A stretch of 64,000 nucleotides of DNA from sequence record KP869112. One strand, given 5' to 3'. Position 1 is the first letter of the stretch. Every line of letters starts with the position of its first letter. Of the stretch, positions 9,776-54,981 are shown piece after piece. This DNA is from Escherichia coli O157 typing phage 14. The position numbers and the translations under genes were made by a program. Under the pieces are notes generated by a model that saw only the letters and a program-made list of their open reading frames with translations, did not search any database and was not told the origin of the DNA.

Positions 9776-9852
9776 TGGTCTCCACGGAGTGATTCGAACA
9801 CTCGACCTCCTGATCCCAAATCAGGCGCTCTACCAAGCTGAGCTACGCGGAG
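9776..9852 (-). tRNA. tRNA-Pro (anticodon UGG)
   Basis: Hand-folded cloverleaf: 7-bp acceptor stem, T-loop TTCGAAT, anticodon loop UUUGGGA, encoded CCA. Confidence 0.75.
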
Positions 9853-9863
9853 TATTTATTATT

Positions 9864-9938
9864 TGGTGGCCCTGGGTGGAATTGAACCACCGTCTGGCGA
9901 TTATGAGTCGCTTGCTTGAACCTTCCAGCTACAGGGCC
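9864..9938 (-). tRNA. tRNA with CAU anticodon (Met or Ile2)
   Basis: Acceptor GGCCCTG/CAGGGCC, T-arm GGTGG-TTCAATT-CCACC, anticodon arm GCGACUCAUAAUCGC, encoded CCA. The anticodon arm resembles the E. coli ileX type as I recall it, so Ile2 is possible. Confidence 0.7.
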
Positions 9939-9939
9939 A

Positions 9940-10015
9940 TGGTGCTGATGGCAGGACTTGAACCTGCAACCTATTGATTACAAATCAATTGCACTACCAA
10001 TTGTGCTACATCAGC
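9940..10015 (-). tRNA. tRNA-Thr (anticodon UGU)
   Basis: Acceptor GCTGATG/CATCAGC, D-stem GCAC/GTGC, anticodon stem ATTGA/TCAAT with loop UUUGUAA, T-loop TTCAAGT, CCA. Confidence 0.75.
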
Positions 10016-10022
10016 AAAAAGG

Positions 10023-10119
10023 TGCTAGGTGATGGAATCGAACCACCTATGTATTCAACGACTACCTCGTCTATTTTCAGGATTAAAAATCCTCGCCCTT
10101 GCCAAAGGGCTTACCTAGC
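10023..10119 (-). tRNA. atypical tRNA-like gene (Lys-like UUU anticodon loop, 29-nt variable region)
   Basis: Perfect 7-bp acceptor GCTAGGT/ACCTAGC, D-arm GCCC-TTTGGCAA-GGGC, T-arm GGTGG-TTCGATT-CCATC; anticodon arm GAGGA-UUUUUAA-UCCUG (G-G mismatch at 27-43). About 29 nt sit between anticodon and T stems, including an ACGA/TCGT hairpin. No complete encoded CCA. Confidence 0.5.
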
Positions 10120-10216
10120 TCAGTATGTTGACCATGTTGCTAGTCGGCGATGACGACTGTAACATTTGATAATCCGGTTCTGCTTCCGGCTTTCGCTTAA
10201 TTACAAGGTCAACAAT

Positions 10217-10308
10217 ATGGCCGAGGGTAATGGAATCGAACCATCATCAAGTCATCCTCAACGGGACGGTTTTCAAGACCGCTTGAGCACCATTGCTCCC
10301 TACCCTCA
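10217..10308 (-). tRNA. tRNA-Ser (anticodon UGA)
   Basis: Class II tRNA, 92 nt: acceptor TGAGGGT/ACCCTCG, anticodon stem GCGGT/ACCGT with loop CUUGAAA, long variable arm, T-loop TTCGATT, CCA. Confidence 0.7.
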
Positions 10309-10422
10309 TTTATAAACAATACTGATAATGACACTGATTTTCGAGCAGTTAGTGACTAGTATAAACGACGATAAATATCAATGCCATTATCTGTATGATT
10401 TATGCATTTAAAACTATAAATT

Positions 10423-10509
10423 TGGTGGGGAGTGGTGGAGTCGAACCACCCGAGTCGCAATGACAATAGATTTACAGTCTACACCGCTACCTCTACGGGA
10501 TAACTCCCC
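10423..10509 (-). tRNA. tRNA-Tyr (anticodon GUA)
   Basis: Acceptor GGGGAGT/ACTCCCC, anticodon stem GTAGA/TCTAT with loop CUGUAAA, long variable arm (class II, bacterial Tyr type), T-arm GGTGG-TTCGACT-CCACC, CCA. Confidence 0.7.
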
Positions 10510-10513
10510 AATT

Positions 10514-10588
10514 TGGCACCCCGTACTGGACTCGAACCAGTGTCAACGGCTTAGAAGGCCGCTGCTTTATCCACTAAGCTAACAGGGC
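10514..10588 (-). tRNA. tRNA-Arg (anticodon UCU)
   Basis: Acceptor GCCCTGT/ACGGGGT (two G.U pairs), D-stem GCTT/AAGC, anticodon stem GCGGC/GCCGT with loop CUUCUAA, T-arm ACTGG-TTCGAGT-CCAGT, CCA. Confidence 0.7.
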
Positions 10589-10684
10589 ACTGGGTGGCTT
10601 TCTTTTACACCTTAGCCGCCAGAAAAGGTGGGAGACCATGTTTACAATATTACACTGTTAAGCAAAGTTTGTCAAGAAAATATT

Positions 10685-11023
10685 TTAGCTATTGCTAACA
10701 GGTTGTATTTCTGTGGTAAATGGCATAAAAGGTGCTGGTTTTTCAGCCTCTTCTACTACCACCTCTTCCTCTTCACCAAACATCTCATCATATTCTTCCT
10801 GCATTCGGTCTGCCTTATCAAGAACATACTCTGCAATGCTTTGACGAATATTTTGTTTGGTTTTCGGGTCCAACATCAGCTCTCTTAAAACTTTGTGAGC
10901 TTCTGGAACCATCGCTATAAAAGATTCCTTCATATCAAGGATGTTCTTCTCTAGCTGAATGGCGTTGGACTCCTCTTTCAGAGGTCTGCCTCTACGGCGA
11001 CGCTTTTTAGTTGTATCCGCCAT
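10685..11023 (-). CDS. hypothetical basic protein (possible DNA-binding)
   Basis: Start at internal ATG 11023 (GGAGG SD). N-terminus KKRRRRGRP, acidic C-terminus. Confidence 0.45.
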   Translation of the reverse strand: MADTTKKRRRRGRPLKEESNAIQLEKNILDMKESFIAMVPEAHKVLRELMLDPKTKQNIRQSIAEYVLDKADRMQEEYDEMFGEEEEVVVEEAEKPAPFMPFTTEIQPVSNS

Positions 11024-11367
11024 GTTTCCTCCATTATCACGTGATAGGTGGATTTTATCATAGCAAATACTGATTGTCAAGTTCGCCGCAGGGTGGTATT
11101 CCCTGCGACTTGTCCAGCGTCCTGGACCAGCAAGACCCAACAAGTGGGTTACCAGAGCCCATTACCGCGCTTTGGCTAGACCTTATTACAGGTTGGCTGG
11201 GGTCACATCGTCATGTGCTGGCTGCCCCTACCATTTTAAGTGTGGTGCACTATCAAGCCCTCTAAGGGGAACTCAGACTTCTCCGAACCCTGTTTCAAAG
11301 CATCCGGAGATAAAGCCATCAAATTCATCTTTAAATTGGATATTCATCATGATACACGAAAACAACC

Positions 11368-11610
11368 TCATTGTAAAGCACAAATAAATAAAACATACTT
11401 AATTTGTTTGTTATCGGGCTCAGGGTAGAAGTAGAAGATCTTGCTATCACCGATCTGAACACCACCATCCCAACAGCATAACCCATAACCAGTATTCATA
11501 CAAGCTAAGTCGTTGGCAAAATCTATTGCATCATCCAGTGCACGAAATTCACCTTCATCTTCTAAATAATCCTCATTCATGGAACGAAAAACGAGCTTAA
11601 CCTTAAACAT
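11368..11610 (-). CDS. hypothetical protein
   Basis: 80-aa minus-strand ORF in a co-oriented gene block; no motif recognised. Confidence 0.35.
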   Translation of the reverse strand: MFKVKLVFRSMNEDYLEDEGEFRALDDAIDFANDLACMNTGYGLCCWDGGVQIGDSKIFYFYPEPDNKQIKYVLFICALQ

Positions 11611-11686
11611 AGCATTACCTGTAGACCTCGTAAGTTAAAATTGTATCACATCATATTGCAGATCTTATCAGGTAACATTATTTTTG

Positions 11687-11896
11687 TCAACAGATTCCGG
11701 CCTTATCCCTCCTGTCTGCATATTCTTTAATCGCAACCTCATCTGCATTGGTTACTAAATCTTCAAAGTAACTCTCAAGCTCCTCGTCAATGTCAGGAAA
11801 CCAACTCTTTTTCCTGTCAGTGTGAATAGCAGACTTGTTGAATTTATTACAGTTCTTTGCTACCGGATTGTTCATTAATCGCCCCTCAGCGTTCAT
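11687..11896 (-). CDS. hypothetical protein
   Basis: 69-aa minus-strand ORF; no motif recognised. Confidence 0.3.
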   Translation of the reverse strand: MNAEGRLMNNPVAKNCNKFNKSAIHTDRKKSWFPDIDEELESYFEDLVTNADEVAIKEYADRRDKAGIC

Positions 11897-12464
11897 AGTA
11901 AATCTTATTTAACATTACCTCATCCTTTGCAGAAAGGATATCAAGATATGCATCACCAAATCTTCCTGCAACAACCTCTGCATGATACATCACTTCGTTA
12001 ACATCGTCAAGAGTGATAACCGGATGACCATATCTTTCTGAATATTGTCTCAGGGTGCGATGTAACGAGTCGTCATCATATGCAGACTTTTTAATATCAC
12101 AAACACGACGAATAGCCTTGATGTCGAAAAAACCTGTGCGATACCACCCAAGAAAAAGGTTTCGTGCAGTGTCAACATCTACATTGATACCATCAAGAAC
12201 CTTATCTACAAGATAGCTGTCATCCTTTGGACCAGCGTCCTTAGTGCGAATGTAGTTGCCATCTTTTCCAGGCGATAGCTCCTTCTCATCCCCAACCTGC
12301 ATGCCATCATTTGGCGGTGTTAGCCACTTATCCGGATGCTTACGATCACGAGCGTTAGAATGATTACGCTGGAAACCGGGCTTCCACTTGAAAGTTTTCT
12401 CCATCTGTTCTTCATTCTGATAACGTTTTGCAATCTTTTCACGGTCATCTTTGCGTGAACCCAT
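11886..12464 (-). CDS. hypothetical protein
   Basis: 192-aa ORF downstream of the 700-bp non-coding block; no motif recognised. Confidence 0.45.
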   Translation of the reverse strand: MGSRKDDREKIAKRYQNEEQMEKTFKWKPGFQRNHSNARDRKHPDKWLTPPNDGMQVGDEKELSPGKDGNYIRTKDAGPKDDSYLVDKVLDGINVDVDTARNLFLGWYRTGFFDIKAIRRVCDIKKSAYDDDSLHRTLRQYSERYGHPVITLDDVNEVMYHAEVVAGRFGDAYLDILSAKDEVMLNKIYYER

Positions 12465-12968
12465 AGCTGCCTCCTCTTCAAGTTATAGAAAAACTCACTG
12501 TATCGCTTTGTAACGAGCTTTTCTATCAAACTGGTGCGATTGCCTTACCTGGTATAGTTTATATAGCTGTGGGGCTATTTAGGGGCCTCCTTGTCCGTTT
12601 CCACACATAAACTTTATCCAAACTCGCGCGGGAGACTCTTAACCGACTCCTTACGGCGCTGGCAAGCTTTCGTCGGTGGTCCACATTAGTGCTCGGCCTT
12701 TGGCCTGCGCTATCGCTTCGCTCCCACACATGTTAACATACCTGCATGTATGCACTTCTGTTATTGTGTGCACTATGGAGGCCCGGCATCTCGCCCCTCG
12801 TAGGCGAGTGCCAATGAAGGGCCGACACTATCCATAGTAAGCAATAAATTTAAAACATGGTACTTAGGATCTAGTATATTCTACATAAGTTAAGTATATG
12901 TACTTTAGTACCATAAGTACTAGATCTTTTATTTTTTATTATTTAGTTATTTTAGTTATATTCTTTAT

Positions 12969-13093
12969 GTGTCCGTATCACGGACAGTTAGTGTCCGTAT
13001 TACGGGCAGATGTGTCCGCGTGACGGACAGTAGTGTCCGTATTACGGGCAGATGTGTCCGCGTGACGGACAGTGGTGTCCGTATCACGGACAG
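12969..13093. repeat. array of six 19-bp palindromic repeats (iteron/operator-like)
   Basis: Units at 12969, 12991, 13012, 13033, 13054 and 13075 with 21-22 bp period. Three variants: A gtgtccgtatcacggacag, B gtgtccgtattacgggcag, C gtgtccgcgtgacggacag, in order A-B-C-B-C-A. Each unit is an inverted repeat (TGTCCG...CGGACA). An AT-rich stretch flanks it at 12923-12968. Confidence 0.85.
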
Positions 13094-13167
13094 TTGATAG
13101 CTTCTGTCCCATATCGAACATAAAACATACGAATCCTTATAGTACAGATATTTAAGTTTTTACTGGT

Positions 13168-13518
13168 CTAACCAGTTGTTGACATTCGAATAACTTCTTC
13201 TGGTGGCAAAACTTTGGAAAATGTGCATCTTTTACCTCTCCCCTGTGTGGATGTTTCAACCACTCCTGCACATTCTAAAGTTTTAACGCACGCTGCTGCT
13301 TTTGTTTTCTTTATCCCAACATCTGCTGCAATTTTCCTTGTGCTGGGTGTGAAGCGTGAATTTCCTCCAAGTTTATACCAGTTGTGCAGGTAGCAGTATA
13401 CGATCTTGTCATACAAGTCAAGAACAACAACCTCCCCAGTTGTGTCATTCAAAACTTTTGACATAGACAGTATTTCAAGGGGGACTTTAAGATATAGCAG
13501 CTTATCCCCATCTTTCAT
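13168..13518 (-). CDS. hypothetical protein, possible winged-helix DNA-binding protein
   Basis: 116 aa; segment STRKIAADVGIKKTKAAACVKTLECAGVV looks like a helix-turn-helix. Sits beside the repeat array. Confidence 0.35.
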   Translation of the reverse strand: MKDGDKLLYLKVPLEILSMSKVLNDTTGEVVVLDLYDKIVYCYLHNWYKLGGNSRFTPSTRKIAADVGIKKTKAAACVKTLECAGVVETSTQGRGKRCTFSKVLPPEEVIRMSTTG

Positions 13519-13565
13519 ATCTCCTGATTCTCCTTGTGTGGCAATTTTCTTTAAAATAGCAGGGA

Positions 13566-14120
13566 TTACTCCCCGCTGTCAATAGCAAAACTCATTGCAA
13601 TACGGTATGCCTCTTCTAATGGTAAGAGTCTCCCCCACACATCCCAACCGACATCAAGCTGCCTGCCAAACAACTGTTGTGTGGTTCCGTGAGCATGACC
13701 GAACAGTTGGACTGATCCGTGAGGCTTTCTGTTCCACTTTGCAAATTGGTAATGGCTCATACAGATCAAATTCTTGTTGTGGCGAAGCTCGTAATAATCT
13801 ACAACCTCGTGATAGAACTCTTTCATAATTCTGACAGTCGTCCTTGTGTCATGGTTGCCACGAACAAGAATAATATGTCCGTTCAACATATTTAGAATAT
13901 CTGGAAGTAATTTGTTGATATTCTTATCATTAGTGCACGCAATATCTCCCAAGTGGAACACAGTGTCTGCAGGTGACACAACAGAGTTCCACTCGGCGAT
14001 GATTCCCGCATTCATACTGTCAAGATTGTGATCATACTGAGATCTGTGTTTTTGACATGAATCAAACTCCATGACCCGCTGGTGGAGAAAGTGTGTGTCG
14101 CTTGTTACAAAGTATTTCAT
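13566..14120 (-). CDS. calcineurin-like metallophosphoesterase (candidate RNA-end healing phosphatase)
   Basis: Motifs SDTHF, HLGDIA, GNHD and FGHAHG in the order typical of binuclear metallophosphoesterases; start at ATG 14120, just after the kinase stop. Confidence 0.65.
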   Translation of the reverse strand: MKYFVTSDTHFLHQRVMEFDSCQKHRSQYDHNLDSMNAGIIAEWNSVVSPADTVFHLGDIACTNDKNINKLLPDILNMLNGHIILVRGNHDTRTTVRIMKEFYHEVVDYYELRHNKNLICMSHYQFAKWNRKPHGSVQLFGHAHGTTQQLFGRQLDVGWDVWGRLLPLEEAYRIAMSFAIDSGE

Positions 14121-14127
14121 ACATTCC

Positions 14128-14538
14128 TCATTTAAGTTTAATGCAGTTTTTAAGCTGGCGTTCCATACGATCCACAACCTTGTCTGGAACATCATGAATG
14201 CTTTTATTACCGTGGCGGTTTTCAACCACGATCACGGTATAACTATACCCATGACTGATTGCCATGTCAACATATTCCTGCACATGTTTTTCTTTTGTAA
14301 ACGTATTACTTACCACGATACGGTCGTATCCCATACGCATCATATCTTCTACGTTATCTTTGCACCATTTTGCTGCGAGTGTTACTTTACTTGCATCCCA
14401 GTTGTAATTGCCGTCATCGTCATACCAGAACATGTCGTTCTCAAAATGTGGATACAGACCTTCTAAAGATAGCGCATTTGCCAGTGTTGATTTGCCAGAC
14501 CCTGGCAGACCACGCACGATATATAGCATTTTAGACAT
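14128..14538 (-). CDS. pnk: polynucleotide 5'-kinase (T4 Pnk kinase-domain-like)
   Basis: P-loop GLPGSGKST, then acidic NDMFWYDDDG, IVVSNTF and IHDVPDKVVDRM, matching the layout of the T4 polynucleotide kinase domain as I recall it. Confidence 0.65.
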   Translation of the reverse strand: MSKMLYIVRGLPGSGKSTLANALSLEGLYPHFENDMFWYDDDGNYNWDASKVTLAAKWCKDNVEDMMRMGYDRIVVSNTFTKEKHVQEYVDMAISHGYSYTVIVVENRHGNKSIHDVPDKVVDRMERQLKNCIKLK

Positions 14539-14638
14539 AGCAATCCTCCGTTTTAATTTTAATGATAGTATACCTAACTGTTTTGTTAATTTCAAGTGTT
14601 GACACTAGGTTATTTGTGTGGCAGGATAGACTGACAAA

Positions 14639-15574
14639 ATGACAAATGAGGAACGTATGATGAAGTATTTTAATGCAGATGACCTAGTAGACAAAGGTCT
14701 TGTAACCAGTCGGTATTATCCAGATCTTGGATTAAAGATCTATAAATATGCCAGAAAAGTATTCTACAACAATCTGTGGCATTTGTCTCCGCGTTTACTG
14801 GAGTGCCGAGGTATTGTTGTTGGCAATGAGGGGAATGTTGTGGCATGGCCTTTCACAAAAGTATTCAACTTAGGAGAAAACTCCACCAACCTACCGGACA
14901 GTAAACTTGTTACTGCGGTAGAGAAAAAGAACGGATTCCTCGGTGTGGTATCATCTCATAAAGGTGAACTATTGTTCTCAACAACCGGGTCTCTTGATTC
15001 TCCATATTGTAACCTTGCAAAGGAAACCATCCAAGAGCAATGTGGTAATTTAGATCTTATCAAGAAGGTTATGGGCAATGAAAACATGACATTCATGTTT
15101 GAAATTTGTCACCCTTCAGATCCGCATATTGTTCAAGAAGACCATGGCGCATATTTGATAGGTTGCAGATATAATGATTCTGGAATAATGCTACCAGAAG
15201 CAGCTTTAGATGGGATTGCCAAATACCTTGGTGCAAAACGTCCTCACACTGTGCGTGAAATCCCGTTCAGCTATGCAAAAGAATTAGCTGCAGAAACAAG
15301 GGGCGAAGGGTATATGATCCGTAAGCCTTACTACCCTTATGACCTGCAGCTGAAGATCAAGTCTCCATACTATTTGGCACGGAAGGCCGTAATGAGAGGT
15401 AAAGCATGGAAGATTTGGGATGACGATATTTTTAAACGTGTTGACGAGGAGTTTTACGGTATGGTAAAATTTATTCGTAGCAACTATACAGAAGATGTGT
15501 GGAATTGCTTATTAGAGCAGGAGCGTCGCGAGATACTGGACTGCTATTTCCACAACGAGGACTATATGCAATGA
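14639..15574 (+). CDS. rnlA: RNA ligase, T4 Rnl1 family
   Basis: LLECRGIVV, KVFNLGEN and the motif I lysine in VEKKNGFLGVV (KxNG) match the T4 RNA ligase 1 N-terminal region as recalled (ALECRGIMF, KFFNLNEN, TKEDGSL); also EGYMIR and KIKSP motifs. Confidence 0.8.
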   Translation: MTNEERMMKYFNADDLVDKGLVTSRYYPDLGLKIYKYARKVFYNNLWHLSPRLLECRGIVVGNEGNVVAWPFTKVFNLGENSTNLPDSKLVTAVEKKNGFLGVVSSHKGELLFSTTGSLDSPYCNLAKETIQEQCGNLDLIKKVMGNENMTFMFEICHPSDPHIVQEDHGAYLIGCRYNDSGIMLPEAALDGIAKYLGAKRPHTVREIPFSYAKELAAETRGEGYMIRKPYYPYDLQLKIKSPYYLARKAVMRGKAWKIWDDDIFKRVDEEFYGMVKFIRSNYTEDVWNCLLEQERREILDCYFHNEDYMQ

Positions 15575-15921
15575 AGAAGTGGATTGTGTGGCTTGATGAT
15601 TTTAGAGATCCGTCAGATTATGGACTCCCAGACGCTCTGTGGCTAAAGAATTCTTCTGAATTTATGGATTTTCTTAATGATAAGAGAAAGCTCTACAGAC
15701 GCGTATCTGAATGGTATTTTGACAATGATCTAGGTGAAGTTCTTGAAGGGTACGACTGCTTCTCTGCGCTAGAGGAGAAACTTGTATTCGGAAAGCCACC
15801 ACTTATTGACAACGTGATTATTTTCGTGCATACTTCTAATCCATCGGCAGCTCGTAAATTTATGCTTGCTGCTGACTCATTCAAGAAGTTTGGAATAGAG
15901 ATCAAACAAAACATCTACTAA
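15571..15921 (+). CDS. hypothetical protein
   Basis: Start at ATG 15571 overlapping the ligase stop (ATGA); no motif recognised. Confidence 0.4.
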   Translation: MKKWIVWLDDFRDPSDYGLPDALWLKNSSEFMDFLNDKRKLYRRVSEWYFDNDLGEVLEGYDCFSALEEKLVFGKPPLIDNVIIFVHTSNPSAARKFMLAADSFKKFGIEIKQNIY

Positions 15922-15929
15922 GGACATTT

Positions 15930-16691
15930 ATGCGACGACTTATTGTTATTTCTGGTGCTGGTTTGAGCGCAGAATCTGGTATTCCCACCTTCCGATCTGG
16001 TAGCACTGCAATGTGGGAGAATTTCAGCATCGATGAGGTGTGCAACATCCACACCTTTGCCAAGAACTACTATAAGGTGCATGACTTTTACAATGCACGT
16101 CGTGTAGCGCTGGGCAGTGTTGATCCTAACCTTGCACATCTTCGGATCGCTGAGTGGTATTCCCGCTGGTCTGGTCGTGTGATCAACCTTACCACCAATG
16201 TAGATGATTTGCTGGAGCGTGCTGGTGTAAAACATGAAGATATTTTACATGTCCACGGGTATTTGCCTGAAATCACCTACGAAGATGCTGAAGGTAATGA
16301 TGTAATTAAAAATATCGGATACACGGAGGTAGATACAGGCAAGTATACCTGGGTTAAGCCCAATGTAGTGTTCTTCGGCGAGGTTGCTCCTAAGTATACA
16401 GACATGTATGACCTGTTGACATCTCTCACCAGCAATGATATGGTGATCCTAGTGGGTTGTTCTAACACAGTTATTAATTTTAACTGGGAATTGTTTCCTG
16501 CTACTTGTAAAGGAACAAAACTGCTGATTGTAAACAAGTATGATTCGCAGAGTGCAGATGGAAGTGGCATTTCACGTAGCGACCTTTATCAATATGAGGA
16601 TCGCGGGATCCCTGTATGGTTTAACGGTGCTGTTGACGCTTTCTCTGATAAAGCATTTATTGAAACTGTAGAAAACTTTATGGAACTTTAA
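15930..16691 (+). CDS. Sir2-family (sirtuin-like) NAD-dependent protein
   Basis: Canonical sirtuin motifs GAGLSAESGIPTFR, TTNVDDL, HVHG and VVFFGE, but no Cys4 zinc ribbon between the HG and FGE motifs. Confidence 0.75.
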   Translation: MRRLIVISGAGLSAESGIPTFRSGSTAMWENFSIDEVCNIHTFAKNYYKVHDFYNARRVALGSVDPNLAHLRIAEWYSRWSGRVINLTTNVDDLLERAGVKHEDILHVHGYLPEITYEDAEGNDVIKNIGYTEVDTGKYTWVKPNVVFFGEVAPKYTDMYDLLTSLTSNDMVILVGCSNTVINFNWELFPATCKGTKLLIVNKYDSQSADGSGISRSDLYQYEDRGIPVWFNGAVDAFSDKAFIETVENFMEL

Positions 16692-16704
16692 AAGGAGACC
16701 TTTA

Positions 16705-17418
16705 ATGCTGAATACTAAACTGATCGACAACCTGGAAAAACTGTCTCAGCCTGAAAACTACCTTTGGTCTGCCAATTGGGTGGAAAACTGGAACCGTGTG
16801 GCAGCTAAAGTGAAAAAATCATACACACCATTCGAATTACAGCTTAGCTTCATTGAGGAAGAGTTCAATGAGGTTTTGGAAGAGCTGGAGAAAGGTGATG
16901 GTGGAGATCACCTGCTAAAAGAGGCCTGCGATCTTCACGTTGTCACAAGTTATGCCGCTTATCTTGTTAATGATAATCACGAAAAGTGGTCAAACCTGTT
17001 TGATAATCCGCGAGGTCTTAAGTTCAAGATCGGCGAGTTCTATGATACACTGATCGCTGCGAAAAACACCTCTAAGCAAAGAGCGTCTGCTTACCGCTTA
17101 GCAGAGTTGTCAACAGCTTTGCTGTTCCAGCTTCGCGGCGATGTGTGCGGGATGATGCGTAAGGTTCTCAAATCGAATGACAGCAAGTTTGCACGGGTCA
17201 ACCATCTACGGTATTCACACGGTGCCAGTGCAGATATGCCTGCTGAACAACTAATCGAGTTGGAGATTAAAGATCTTGAACGACGCTTTGATGGTCGATA
17301 TGAAGGTTTTGTTGCCAAGGAAGAATTCTACAACGGTAATAAAGTTATCATATTCCTTGACAGTAAAGGTAAGATCATGAAGCCTTCGAGCTTCAAGGAT
17401 GTAACAGAGTATATTTAA
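16705..17418 (+). CDS. MazG-like nucleotide pyrophosphohydrolase
   Basis: EExxE...ExxD pattern (FIEEEFNEVLEEL...KEACDLHVV) typical of all-alpha NTP pyrophosphatases. Confidence 0.5.
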   Translation: MLNTKLIDNLEKLSQPENYLWSANWVENWNRVAAKVKKSYTPFELQLSFIEEEFNEVLEELEKGDGGDHLLKEACDLHVVTSYAAYLVNDNHEKWSNLFDNPRGLKFKIGEFYDTLIAAKNTSKQRASAYRLAELSTALLFQLRGDVCGMMRKVLKSNDSKFARVNHLRYSHGASADMPAEQLIELEIKDLERRFDGRYEGFVAKEEFYNGNKVIIFLDSKGKIMKPSSFKDVTEYI

Positions 17419-17480
17419 CAACATAGCCGGGATTACCCGGCTTTACTTATTATGGAAAGTATGCAGTGAGGTAGTTAGTT

Positions 17481-51841: not shown

Positions 51842-51931
51842 ATGAGAACATTGTCCGAAGTTTTGGTGGTGATCCTGATGATCATTACGTCCATAGCGGC
51901 TGTTGCCGGAATACTCACGGGTGGAACATGA
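51842..51931 (+). CDS. small hydrophobic peptide (29 aa)
   Basis: MRTLSEVLVVILMIITSIAAVAGILTGGT; downstream of the promoter; stop overlaps the next ORF start. Confidence 0.3.
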   Translation: MRTLSEVLVVILMIITSIAAVAGILTGGT

Positions 51932-52140
51932 TAAACACACATGCATCTGAAGAGACATCCAAAGGAGTGACTATATGTCCCTTGGCTGAGCCAGTGAAAG
52001 AGGAAAACTTCGATTCTGAAGATTCTCCATCTTCGCTCCAGGTAGATCCTGAGGCTGATGACCTAACGTGGGAAGACATCGTAGATATCTGGTTCTCTAT
52101 TATGCCTGAGCACGAAGAGTTCAGGGGTGGTAGACTATGA
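51928..52140 (+). CDS. hypothetical acidic protein
   Basis: 70-aa ORF. Confidence 0.3.
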   Translation: MINTHASEETSKGVTICPLAEPVKEENFDSEDSPSSLQVDPEADDLTWEDIVDIWFSIMPEHEEFRGGRL

Positions 52141-52261
52141 AGCACCGAGCCCACACAGGTTCCTCATGCTAAAGCATGGCCTGAAGAGGCAAACGTGCAT
52201 AATTCCTGTACATTGGGACGTATAAAACCCTGTTCACATTCTCATTTCCAGAGGAGATTTC

Positions 52262-52477
52262 ATGAAGATAGAAATATTTGGTGGAGCTGACAATACTCGT
52301 GGCCTGATTTACCTTGAATTCGATGAATCATACCTGCCAGAGGTGTTAAATATGGACTCTGTTGCTGATGCTTTGGGAGTAAGTCCTAAAGATCTCTACT
52401 CTGGTGCTGAGATTGATGGTTGGGAGGAGACCATGAACATTGATTTCAGTGAAGTAGGTGATGAACCACTGGACTGA
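52262..52477 (+). CDS. hypothetical acidic protein
   Basis: 71-aa ORF with GGAG SD; last plus-strand gene before the non-coding region. Confidence 0.35.
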   Translation: MKIEIFGGADNTRGLIYLEFDESYLPEVLNMDSVADALGVSPKDLYSGAEIDGWEETMNIDFSEVGDEPLD

Positions 52478-54020
52478 CACACAATTAGCTACCCGGCTAA
52501 AGTGCTGGGAGCACCTATAACACATCTTTCAACTAAATTTCCTACCACCACAATCACTTACCTCCCACACATGACTGTTTGCTTGTTTAGTGAGCAGTCA
52601 TGCCTTGACATTCTTGCCTATCCTGATAAAATTAAGTTCTTCTCTTTTCTTTTACCGAGTAATTCGGGTTTTCTGTTCTCTTCGGTTTGAAGGGGTATGG
52701 AGATACACCTGAGTGAACAGGGTGAACAACCGAACCATTGGCTATGGCATTAGCATGGCGAAGCGGACGGGTGACGAAAGAGGGGCCGGAGGACACCAGT
52801 CACTGCCATATGATATATAGGTGATAACCTGAAGAGTCTGAATAAGTGTTTAAGTACCAGTCAGAGGAAAAGGTGAATGGTAGCCGAAGGGGGAGGGGGG
52901 TTTCTTGTATCTTTAATTTGTATATTATGTATACACTTGTAAACCAACACCATCTGAATTTGCTTACCACACAAAGCGGATAGAGACAAATATTACCTAT
53001 TAAACTTGAATTATTTATAGAAAATACCACAACACCACTTAAGTCTTTGATTTTACACATAAATCCTACAGATATTCACCCTCCATATTTAACATACTTG
53101 TAACATATCTATACCCAACCTGTCTGATCAACTCACCCAACTACATCCTCCATATTTCCCCTGTCTGTACTACCCCTGCCCAGCCGGGAGTCCCGTCATA
53201 TCTGGCTTTCCAGCAAATATCACACCCACAAATATCATTGCCTGAAGAGGGTTTCATCCCATAATACATGCCTTACCTGAAGAGCGCTTCATACACCACG
53301 TAAATTTTTTAATTGACCTGCAATTTTCCCGTCATGACCCCCTGCCCCGCCAGAGAGGTTGACTTTTCCCACACAGACCTGAAGAGCCAGCCAGAAATAT
53401 CTGAACAGGTCCAGTTATACCACGATTTTGACCTGACCGACAGGAGTGCCTCCCTGTCAGGAGCCGGTAGCGACTGGAGTGCTGCCAGGCGGACGAAATG
53501 GGAATACTTCTCATTCTTATAATAATTCTCAAATATCGAGGCAGTGAGGCAAATTAATAGGTGAGGCCGTTCACACAGTGGCACAACATTTGCAACCTAT
53601 CTTGTGGGGTGAATGAGAATACCTATCATTGTGAGAATAGTTATCATTACGGGCAATTTAACATAATACCCATTATGCGCACCACTGGCGATACATACAG
53701 GGGTTGATAACATGAGTTACTGTTTACGCACATAACAATTATATTTCTTACTATTTGTGTGGGATATAGTTAGCAGCCGATAGATTAGATATTGACCTGT
53801 AGACTTCCAACCGTCTAGACGTCTAAACGCCCACACAACAAGGCTTATACATACATCACTGAATGTAAACAGGACCGCAAAAATGCTACCATACAAGCTT
53901 GTAAATTTTTCATGCAGCACTTGACAAAGAGGAGGAAAACTTGTCTGACACACTGGGCACAACATAACATACTGCAGCACAATATGACACAATAACGACT
54001 GTTATTATTTCATGTTTCAC

Positions 54021-54080
54021 TGTTCACGTATAGATTGTTCCCGCATAGACTGTTTACGCCTGGATAGTTCACGCATAGAT
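54021..54080. repeat. four tandem ~15-bp direct repeats
   Basis: tgttcacgtatagat, tgttcccgcatagac, tgtttacgcctggatag, ttcacgcatagat in tandem. Confidence 0.7.
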
Positions 54081-54086
54081 GATAAG

Positions 54087-54317
54087 CCATGCCATTCGTT
54101 TGCATGACAATAATTAACTTGTTTACAATAGATGACATAATATAAAAGCAGGGCAACTATTAGAAGATCATAGTTGCCTTGCTTGTTATGTCATGATTAA
54201 CTAAATACAAGGCAACTATGATCTGATTAATAGATTGCAGACAAACTATCACGGGGGTGATTGTTACTGCTTTTATATTATGTCGCGACTCCGTCGCGCC
54301 ATGCCATTCGTTTGCAT
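54087..54317. repeat. nested repeat structure: 19-bp direct repeats flanking a 17-bp inverted-repeat pair
   Basis: ccatgccattcgtttgcat at 54087-54105 and 54299-54317; acataatataaaagcag at 54135-54151 with exact reverse complement at 54268-54284; internal palindrome ggcaactat...atagttgcc (54151-54177). Confidence 0.8.
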
Positions 54318-54981
54318 AGTTGCCTTATTGTTACAGATAAAATAATTGTATTGTTAATTATTTCTTATCTTTCTATTAGTCATCTAATGATTTCAGTTAG
54401 TATAGTAACGTACAGTAAACATTAGACGACTAAAGATTTCTCTGCTTATAATAACCTAACGTGACAATTCCGGACTGTTTACGAAAAATGTTGACACCTG
54501 AGCTGATTTATGTTATGCAGTTTACACGAATAATTATTTTATGCAGGTATTGACTATTCTGTTATTCTATGGTTGGAATAAATACTTAGCAGGCTATAGA
54601 ATGGTGAGCGTACGTAAATTCTAAGATCTGGCGGCTATAGTTATGCCCGATTTTTCACGTAGAAAACGCTTTTATGAGTGTGTAAGTGTATGACTTATAA
54701 AGATTTTTAGTTGTTGACAAGATACTGAAGATGTGCATCAGGTTAAATTTTGTGCAATAGCGGCATTACGTGCAATTTTGGAAGGAAAAACGTGTAAAAA
54801 ATGGCGCTGCTACCACACAATGAAAGATTATGCAATAGCTATTTTACATGTATGTTTGTACAGTGGTGGTAATTGATGGCTTGTCGATTATTCCACTTGC
54901 CAGGCTGGGCCGTTTGTGGTAGGGGAAATACAGACAAAAAGAAAGGGGCCTTTTAAAGCCCCTGATAGTTTAGTTAATAAA

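Follow-up and report, generated by a model that had tools for sequence, protein, structure and literature searches.

The 64,000-nucleotide (nt) stretch of Escherichia coli O157 typing phage 14 analyzed here (KP869112; hereafter the window) encodes a Sir2-family protein, gp080, which retains the nicotinamide adenine dinucleotide (NAD+)-binding and catalytic residues of sirtuins, has lost the zinc ligands of the small domain, and sits in a tightly packed unit of RNA-repair genes. We hypothesize, with a probability of roughly 0.38, that gp080 performs the NAD+-consuming ADP-ribosyl-transfer step of a phage RNA/tRNA end-repair cassette. This reading and that of an ordinary lysine deacylase rank first and second and are nearly tied, with a NADase reading placed below them.

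The open reading frame (ORF) of gp080 begins with ATG and has AAGGA ahead of the start. Between 15400 and 17000 the window is 99.9% identical to Escherichia phage V5 (rV5; DQ832317 / NC_011041), whose locus rv5_gp080 is this gene, and RefSeq carries for gp080 the note 'similar to phage T5 putative Sir2-like protein'. The protein scores 98.2 bits with Pfam SIR2 (PF02146), for which the cut-off is 24 (E=6.9e-28; model positions 1-178 of 180), and hits PHROG 2162, "Sir2 (NAD-dependent deacetylase)", at 2e-108. From an alignment of 41 diverse homologs, which reach down to 50% identity, AlphaFold2 produced a model with a mean predicted local distance difference test score (pLDDT) of 89.4 and a predicted template modeling score of 0.88; a short extra loop of the rV5 protein, residues 203-215, has low pLDDT. 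The same 41 sequences share 49 invariant positions, which include all NAD+-binding and catalytic residues. We propose that gp080 is a catalytically competent sirtuin descended from class III (CobB/SIRT5-type) ancestors. Its features are as follows.

15930..16691, plus strand: Sir2-family protein gp080 (253 amino acids, aa), identified by Pfam SIR2, PHROG 2162, CobB-type alignment and the AlphaFold2 model
15954..15995, plus strand: NAD+-binding loop G9-AGLSAESGIPTF-R22, with G9, A10, G11, S16, G17, F21 and R22 invariant in the 41 homologs
16041..16043, plus strand: Cys38, invariant, aligned with CobB Ala76 and SIRT5 Ala86
16086..16103, plus strand: F53-Y-N-A-R-R58, the class III YxxR anion-recognition motif (Y54, R57), invariant in the clade
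16191..16208, plus strand: T88-T-N-V-D-D93, the TQN(I/V)D motif with its Gln replaced by Thr89, invariant in the 41-homolog alignment
16254..16259, plus strand: catalytic His109-Gly110, invariant, aligned with the catalytic HG of CobB
16260..16373, plus strand: zinc-less small-domain module, residues 111-148, with a conserved IGY (G130, Y131) and W141-x-K143-P144
16374..16382, plus strand: F149-G-E151 motif, with F148, F149 and E151 invariant

Further motifs read from the sequence are G176-C-S178, a GxS motif that like NxD (residues 90-92) is invariant in the 41 homologs, and N202. A preliminary description of this DNA had stated that the sirtuin NAD-binding and catalytic motifs are kept and that no Cys4 module lies between the HG and FGE motifs, and both statements hold. 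The 38 residues from HG to FGE (residues 111-148) contain no Cys and no His, and a canonical Cys4 (CxxC...CxxC) zinc site was not found in this small-domain segment; the segment of E. coli CobB aligned to it has four Cys. A cryptic zinc site is rejected as unlikely, as the module offers neither residue and the three Cys of the whole protein (C38, C177, C193) are scattered, with only C38 invariant. At most one Cys occurs in the HG-FGE segment in 111 of the 112 scorable sequences among the 120 closest homologs (47-93% identity), whereas among 142 full-length relatives at a greater distance 91 have at least three, typically as CxxC...CxxC. The three-stranded sheet of the module is nonetheless predicted by AlphaFold2 at a pLDDT of about 95 without metal ligands.

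By sequence and predicted structure, gp080 is a class III sirtuin, the class of CobB, SIRT5, and Sir2Af1. These three proteins are its best sequence matches in the PDB (CobB at 2.4e-21; 31% identity to E. coli CobB over 212 residues), and in a Foldseek search of the PDB with the model CobB ranked first (TM 0.75), followed by SIRT5 and Sir2Af1, with all of the top 50 being deacylase sirtuins. In the alignment, F21 and R22 correspond to SIRT5 Phe70 and Arg71, and F53-R58 matches residue for residue FYNARR of CobB (Y92/R95) and FYHYRR of SIRT5 (Y102/R105). The class-defining features are thus present: the YxxR motif, a small residue at the position of SIRT5 Ala86, and nearest neighbors in sequence and structure that are themselves class III. 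In SIRT5, Tyr102 and Arg105 bind the succinyl carboxylate as well as the sulfonates of suramin, Ala86 enlarges the acyl pocket, and Gln140 contacts the NAD+ ribose (PMC9340778).

The class III deacylases differ from gp080 in that they have the zinc ligands, the Gln of TQNxD, and a proline in the VxP motif; the C-terminal third of gp080 is divergent, and the gene is phage-borne and linked to genes that process RNA ends and ADP-ribose. The best NCBIfam matches are CobB-type deacylase models, which gp080 reaches with at most 123 bits against cut-offs of 221-395; for the CobB equivalogs (NF040867, NF001753 and others) the best scores were 123.3 (cut-off 243) and 104.6 (cut-off 320), below the thresholds. 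Judged on its sequence, gp080 is a diverged relative of CobB and no equivalog. It belongs to the phage Sir2/CobB family, with the T5 Sir2-like protein and the Sir2/CobB of KVP40 and phiSt2, and differs from these in nothing material.

Members of this family at 47-93% identity were found in 1,011 of 50,697 phage records (~2%), with T5-like, rV5-like, phi92-like, KVP40-like, and jumbo phages as carriers. Identity to gp080 is 47-59% for the T5-like, Mydovirus, and phi92-like copies and about 45% for the KVP40-like ones. A helical-module insert of about 25 residues, present in the T5-like and phi92-like copies, is absent from gp080.

To place the zinc loss, relatives were drawn from 1.84 billion cluster representatives, and 150 representative relatives were examined for the C38/Y54/R57 signature. 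Relatives at 38-51% identity share this signature and the "IGY" element, and most of them keep CxxC...CxxC. Because the closest relatives from cells (45-51% identity) are bacterial sirtuins that contain zinc, two of them (P0147 and P0135) encoded in unremarkable surroundings on bacterial chromosomes, the zinc loss is a derived change within a bacterial CobB-like subfamily, with no mark of defense-type ancestry. Several other accounts were considered and set aside. Zinc loss is not a phage-only trait, as a zinc-less homolog (P0127) occurs in a bacterial TRAP/ABC-transporter context. The idea that the zinc-containing close relatives are phage genes is unsupported given the chromosomal contexts of P0147 and P0135, as is a phage origin for P0145, whose closest matches among isolated phages are zinc-less proteins, with none closer. 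Finally, YxxR and C38 are common to nearly all 150 representative relatives, and we reject the notion that they are a phage innovation for phosphate binding.

Two further changes accompany the loss of the zinc ligands. The Gln-to-Thr replacement in TQN(I/V)D covaries with it (37 T and 7 Q in zinc-less sequences; 10 T and 77 Q in zinc-containing ones; counts not phylogeny-corrected), and in the rV5/T5 clade F184, invariant in 41 sequences, occupies the position of the VxP proline of CobB and the KVP40-type copies. These clade-specific fixed changes (zinc ligands, Thr89, F184) all border the substrate cleft.

The location of the gene beside RNA-repair genes, another statement of the preliminary description, was confirmed, and the adjoining ORF that it had singled out as a partner (15571-15921) encodes a cyclic-phosphate-processing receiver-like (cREC) domain. 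The surrounding features are the following.

14639..15574, plus strand: T4 Rnl1-like RNA ligase gp078 (Pfam RNA_lig_T4_1, 9.1e-15; TIGR02308, 1e-9; RefSeq)
15571..15921, plus strand: cREC protein gp079 (Pfam cREC_REC, 9.1e-14; PHROG 1479)
16705..17418, plus strand: candidate MazG-like nucleotide pyrophosphohydrolase gp081 (PHROG 671, 5.4e-22; RefSeq name)
17425..17442, no strand assigned: GC-rich palindromic hairpin from a consensus scan, with a perfect 7-bp stem (6 GC), directly after the gp081 stop
14128..14538, minus strand: P-loop (AAA_33) kinase gp077, a candidate polynucleotide 5'-kinase (Pfam AAA_33, 1.7e-10; RefSeq)
13566..14120, minus strand: calcineurin-like metallophosphoesterase gp076 (Pfam Metallophos, 9.5e-7; RefSeq 'phosphoesterase')
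9776..10588, minus strand: tRNA cluster (Pro, Met, Thr, Ser, Tyr, Arg, and one odd tRNA-like call; ARAGORN, RefSeq)

On the plus strand the order is Rnl1-like ligase, cREC, Sir2, and MazG-like gene, tightly packed: the ligase stop overlaps the cREC start (ATGA), the Sir2 start lies 8 nt past the cREC stop behind AAGGA, and the ATG of gp081 lies 13 nt past the Sir2 stop behind AAGGAG. The kinase and phosphoesterase genes are divergent from this unit, and 4 kb separate the cassette from the tRNA cluster upstream. All five partners of the published type 2 Sir2 RNA-repair neighborhood are thus found within 2.5 kb of gp080, the MazG partner by annotation only. For gp081, Pfam and PDB sequence searches gave no match, leaving its MazG assignment at annotation level; the protein has been assigned to the MazG superfamily (PMC9503650). 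A Macro-domain partner was not found in rV5 by Pfam scan or in the RefSeq annotation, and NAD+ salvage genes were not found in the window by a tblastn panel or in its annotation. The hairpin after gp081 might serve as a (bidirectional) terminator ending the ligase-cREC-Sir2-MazG unit, a weak suggestion because terminator-like sites in the region do not exceed shuffle expectation.

The linkage recurs on unrelated phage backbones with shuffled partners. Mydovirus KpS8 has the order phosphoesterase...Rnl-cREC-kinase-x-Sir2-DNA ligase and encodes NAMPT and PRPP synthetase 5 kb upstream. In T5-like SP15 the order is Sir2-x-HAD_SAK_2, where HAD_SAK_2 is a HAD phosphatase of the "Swiss-army-knife" type in RNA repair, and PhoH lies 3 kb upstream. 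Eneladusvirus carries NMNAT/ADPRase, NAMPT, 2H (Acb1-like), Sir2, a Nudt16-like Nudix::cREC fusion, and PIN-PhoH, and jumbo phage SHEFM2K has Sir2-Nudix-cREC-PIN-PhoH, so that the cREC family adjoins Sir2 also in Mydovirus and two jumbo-phage groups. Two T4-like metagenomic contigs have RlaP and Band_7 as neighbors of Sir2; on one of them NADAR follows Sir2 directly downstream, and the other has NAMPT. On another metagenomic contig Sir2 overlaps a gene for PTH2 peptidyl-tRNA hydrolase, while several further metagenomic contexts were too short or uninformative.

We ran a tblastn panel on 78 Sir2 loci from IMG/VR. A gene of the panel for RNA-end processing lies within 5 kb of Sir2 at 42 of these loci. 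Thirteen are rV5/Mydo-like, with ligase, kinase, phosphoesterase, and MazG-like genes (cREC detected in 8); 28 are T5-like, with HAD_SAK_2 at +0.7 to +1.2 kb; and one has RlaP, Band_7, and NAMPT. Ten have only a DUF7275 protein upstream. We conclude that the linkage of Sir2 to genes processing RNA ends and ADP-ribose is real and recurrent, with partners that are shuffled, and that it is not universal.

Other observations at Sir2 loci concern the neighbors themselves. A DUF7275/DUF7277 protein lies 2.7-4.0 kb upstream of Sir2 in ESCO13 (L006:1799-2737), in Vibrio phage nt-1 (L005:1843-2601), and at the 10 IMG/VR loci; it occurs in phi92-like and KVP40-like phages, two unrelated families in which we saw no recognizable RNA-repair neighbors, and is not encoded by rV5. 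We considered it as a hidden RNA ligase and rejected this, as it has no similarity to Rnl1 and no sequence relative in the PDB. Calcineurin-like metallophosphoesterases adjoin Sir2 homologs on a bacterial zinc-less-Sir2 contig (L019:6925-7659) and at distant viral loci (L105, L080), and on this ground the metallophosphoesterase may be the oldest partner of the gp080 sirtuin lineage. NAD+ salvage genes (NAMPT, PRPP synthetase, NMNAT/ADP-ribose pyrophosphatase) lie 0.6-8 kb from Sir2 in Mydovirus, Eneladusvirus, and a T4-like contig, at these positions:

L004:1-1133 (Klebsiella phage KpS8): NAD+ salvage genes near Sir2
L008:1-2978: NAD+ salvage genes near Sir2
L024:3993-5378: NAD+ salvage genes near Sir2

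In the T5-like Providencia phage PSTCR5 (L014:168-8241), a cREC homolog lies inside a tRNA gene array, far from any Sir2, which supports a tRNA-related role of cREC independent of the sirtuin.

Sirtuin deacylation and Tpt1 dephosphorylation share a chemical logic, in which an oxygen attacks C1'' and the 2''-OH then attacks to give a 1'',2''-cyclic species. Building on this, we infer a substrate, two chemical steps on RNA, and roles for cREC and gp081. An oxygen of an RNA phosphate, most likely a 2'-phosphate on damaged or freshly ligated RNA, would attack C1'' of NAD+ with release of nicotinamide. His109 would then activate the 2''-OH of the ADP-ribose for attack on the phosphate, yielding RNA with a 2'-OH and ADP-ribose 1'',2''-cyclic phosphate; the two steps would be those of Tpt1/KptA, carried out by an unrelated fold. 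The cREC protein gp079 would open the cyclic phosphate, the MazG-like gp081 (in jumbo phages, a Nudix enzyme) would degrade the ADP-ribose by-product, and the kinase, metallophosphoesterase, and Rnl1-like ligase would heal and seal the RNA ends.

Context favors the RNA-repair reading, which accounts for the company that Sir2 keeps: cREC and an NDP-X pyrophosphatase, and no Macro domain. The fixed changes at the cleft agree with it, as does the binding of sulfonates, tetrahedral oxyanions as phosphate is, by the SIRT5 Tyr/Arg pocket. In its suggestion of ADP-ribosyl transfer the preliminary description was partly right: the chemistry is plausible, and a host protein as the target has less in its favor than an RNA-end phosphate. 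Tpt1/KptA serves here as a proposed functional analog only. It likewise consumes NAD+ and releases nicotinamide in two steps via a 1'',2''-cyclic ADP-ribose species, and it is associated in genomes with RNA ligases, 2H/cyclic phosphodiesterases, and ADP-ribose-processing enzymes. Its fold is unrelated, however: the only Pfam domain of gp080 is SIR2, the fold is the sirtuin Rossmann fold, the Arg-His-Arg-Arg tetrad of Tpt1/KptA is absent, and gp080 is acidic. In a bolder form of the proposal, which we regard as possible but doubtful, the zinc-less phage sirtuins would be true functional analogs of Tpt1/KptA that, with cREC and MazG/Nudix, provide a yeast/plant-style 2'-phosphate tRNA repair countering tRNA-cleaving defenses. 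Loss of the zinc ligands, the change of Gln89 to Thr, and loss of the VxP proline would then be adaptations opening the lysine tunnel to an RNA end.

A number of observations weigh against a role in RNA repair. We know of no sirtuin shown to act on a nucleic-acid phosphate, and the close structural and sequence relatives of gp080 with established function are all lysine deacylases. The bacterial relatives at 45-51% identity occupy ordinary chromosomal contexts, and Y54, R57, and C38 were inherited from that bacterial subfamily and are no phage innovations. In other sirtuins hydrophobic residues line the acyl-lysine tunnel, and their counterparts in gp080 (V91, F149, V181, I182) are kept and invariant. 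The protein has an isoelectric point (pI) of 4.9 and a net charge of -12 (clade median pI 5.1), poor values for RNA binding. Healing and sealing of the T4 type require no removal of a 2'-phosphate, and what cREC, HAD_SAK_2, and RlaP do is likewise no more than predicted. Nor does the linkage hold everywhere: about 26 of the 78 IMG/VR loci, a third, have none of the panel genes, recognizable RNA-repair neighbors were not found in phi92-like and KVP40-like phages, the genes hit by cREC in the phi92-like group are annotated as "RNA ligase" (ESCO5, ukendt, EF1-1), and PHB05 has its cREC 32 kb away from Sir2.

The closest competitor is that gp080 is an ordinary NAD+-dependent lysine deacylase that, like CobB and SIRT5, prefers acidic acyl groups (succinyl, malonyl, glutaryl, also acetyl), which we consider a real possibility. 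Its targets would be host or phage proteins, for example enzymes of translation or metabolism, or active-site lysines in the phage's own ligases; packing and salt bridges would have replaced the zinc with function unchanged, and the neighboring Nudix, MazG, and phosphoesterase proteins would dispose of O-acyl-ADP-ribose. Intrinsic features favor this account, because all characterized relatives are deacylases, YxxR and C38 are inherited, the tunnel is invariant, the protein is acidic, and T4-type repair proceeds without a 2'-phosphate step. The 31% identity to CobB, the PDB and NCBIfam matches to CobB-type sirtuins, and the standard, zinc-containing form of the bacterial homologs (45-51%) all agree with it, as does the invariance of YxxR, the small residue at SIRT5 Ala86, the catalytic His, F21, FGE, and the tunnel residues. 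An acidic surface suits basic, lysine-rich protein substrates, the zinc-module fold is confidently predicted without metal, the NAMPT, NMNAT, and PRPP synthetase genes nearby in several phage lineages fit nicotinamide recycling, and Skliros et al. 2016 read the zinc-less KVP40-type Sir2 in the same way (PMC5107563). However, NCBIfam scores of at most 123 bits fall far under the CobB cut-offs of 221-395, and at the cleft the clade has invariant changes of its own: Thr replaces Gln89, and both the VxP proline and the zinc ligands are gone. A general deacylase also leaves unexplained the order-shuffled linkage to RNA-end- and ADP-ribose-processing genes on unrelated backbones, and no Macro-type O-acyl-ADP-ribose deacylase is linked.

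From the missing zinc, the preliminary description had argued for a possible NADase or ADP-ribosyltransferase acting on NAD+ or host targets, of the kind known from bacterial defense systems, and had proposed a structural comparison with ThsA- and SirTM-type domains. That step is not supported, and we consider an enzyme of this sort, acting on host NAD+, proteins, or nucleic acids in the manner of ThsA, DSR, SIR2-HerA, or SirTM, improbable. The defense Sir2 NADases (ThsA, DSR1/2, SIR2-HerA, SIR2-APAZ/pAgo, Avs5) do share with gp080 a Sir2 Rossmann core without a Cys4 zinc ribbon, but they rank far below the deacylase sirtuins in similarity to it: none is among the Foldseek top 50 of the PDB, which CobB leads, and the PADLOC defense-Sir2 models gave no match beyond a spurious 13-bit PDC-S65 hit. 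Whereas defense Sir2 proteins have a fused or adjacent partner (SLOG, HerA, Argonaute/APAZ, STAND, or a large C-terminal sensor), gp080 is a single-domain protein of 253 aa with RNA-repair neighbors, and no SLOG, HerA, pAgo, STAND, or Macro is fused or adjacent in rV5. SirTM resembles it in using a sirtuin fold for ADP-ribosyl transfer and in having its function defined by gene neighborhood, but SirTM comes with a Macro domain, fused or from the same operon, which undoes the modification, and none was found for gp080. The acyl-pocket residues, including Y54/R57 and C38, are invariant, although a plain NADase would have no need of them, and unregulated NAD+ hydrolysis would presumably harm an NAD+-dependent lytic phage. 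The main support for this account is the NADAR gene directly downstream of one homolog, reminiscent of transferase/reversal pairs. The various neighbors that process ADP-ribose derivatives (cREC, Nudt16-like Nudix, MazG-like, 2H, Metallophos) are also consistent with it, and the nearby NAD+ salvage genes suggest real NAD+ turnover. Far less probable still is a decayed, non-catalytic sirtuin serving as an NAD+/ADP-ribose binder or structural partner and tolerating loss of the zinc site. The ligands lost are those of a normally essential structural zinc, yet every NAD+-binding and catalytic residue is among the 49 invariant positions, roughly 1,000 genomes from several phage families retain the gene, and the model is confident and well packed.

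The gp080 gene, the zinc loss, the RNA-repair context, and the specific mechanism, with phage V5 named, have all been published before. Skliros et al. 2016 described a KVP40-type vibriophage Sir2/CobB without zinc ligands, for which they suggested stabilization by salt bridges and a function as deacetylase; T5 and other phages appear in their list of Sir2 carriers (PMC5107563). The definition of the cRec domain, and of how it is linked to RNA ligases, comes from Iyer et al. 2021 (PMC7824862). The same neighborhood, with phage V5 as its prototype, is treated in section 3.7.3 of Iyer et al. 2022, where a KptA/Tpt1-like removal of the RNA 2'-phosphate is predicted from context and zinc loss is not mentioned (PMC9503650). 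The NARP3 paper deals with host Sir2-HerA and has no bearing on gp080. Our literature searches turned up neither biochemical nor genetic tests of a phage sirtuin. What our analysis adds is that the enterobacterial-phage clade has lost the zinc site throughout, from an origin among zinc-containing bacterial CobB-like sirtuins, together with the invariant YxxR/C38 pocket, the Gln-to-Thr covariation, the RlaP/Band_7, NADAR, and PTH2 contexts, and the absence of linkage at about a third of the loci.

Databases label the gp080 family "NAD-dependent deacetylase". Should gp080 prove to be a deacylase, phages would reprogram host lysine acylation. Should it instead remove RNA 2'-phosphates, the catalytic repertoire of sirtuins would be extended and a missing step of phage tRNA repair supplied; as true analogs of Tpt1/KptA, these proteins would be the first sirtuins with a nucleic-acid phosphate as substrate. 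Repair of tRNA is a recognized counter-measure to anticodon nucleases and other tRNA-targeting defenses.

Some observations made along the way concern the window itself. Within the tRNA cluster, ARAGORN predicts a tRNA-like gene of 99 nt whose anticodon has four bases (atcc) at 10021-10119 on the minus strand, between tRNA-Thr and tRNA-Ser, which is unannotated in RefSeq rV5; tRNA-Arg is 175 nt long in RefSeq and 75 nt by ARAGORN (10514-10588). The offset between the window and NC_011041 is 52,200 at tRNA-Pro and 52,140 at Sir2, which places a 60-nt indel within window positions 9852-15930. The segment at ~51900-54500, about 2.6 kb, has no RefSeq rV5 coding sequence and only ORFs shorter than 92 aa; it coincides with a switch of coding strand, a sign change of the GC skew, and the lowest GC content of the window. 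Finally, 18 'Campylobacter phage' records (GenBank MG0656xx, host C. jejuni) match positions 15400-17000, the six listed being 98.3-99.0% identical; the records are mostly unannotated, and their host labels look doubtful.

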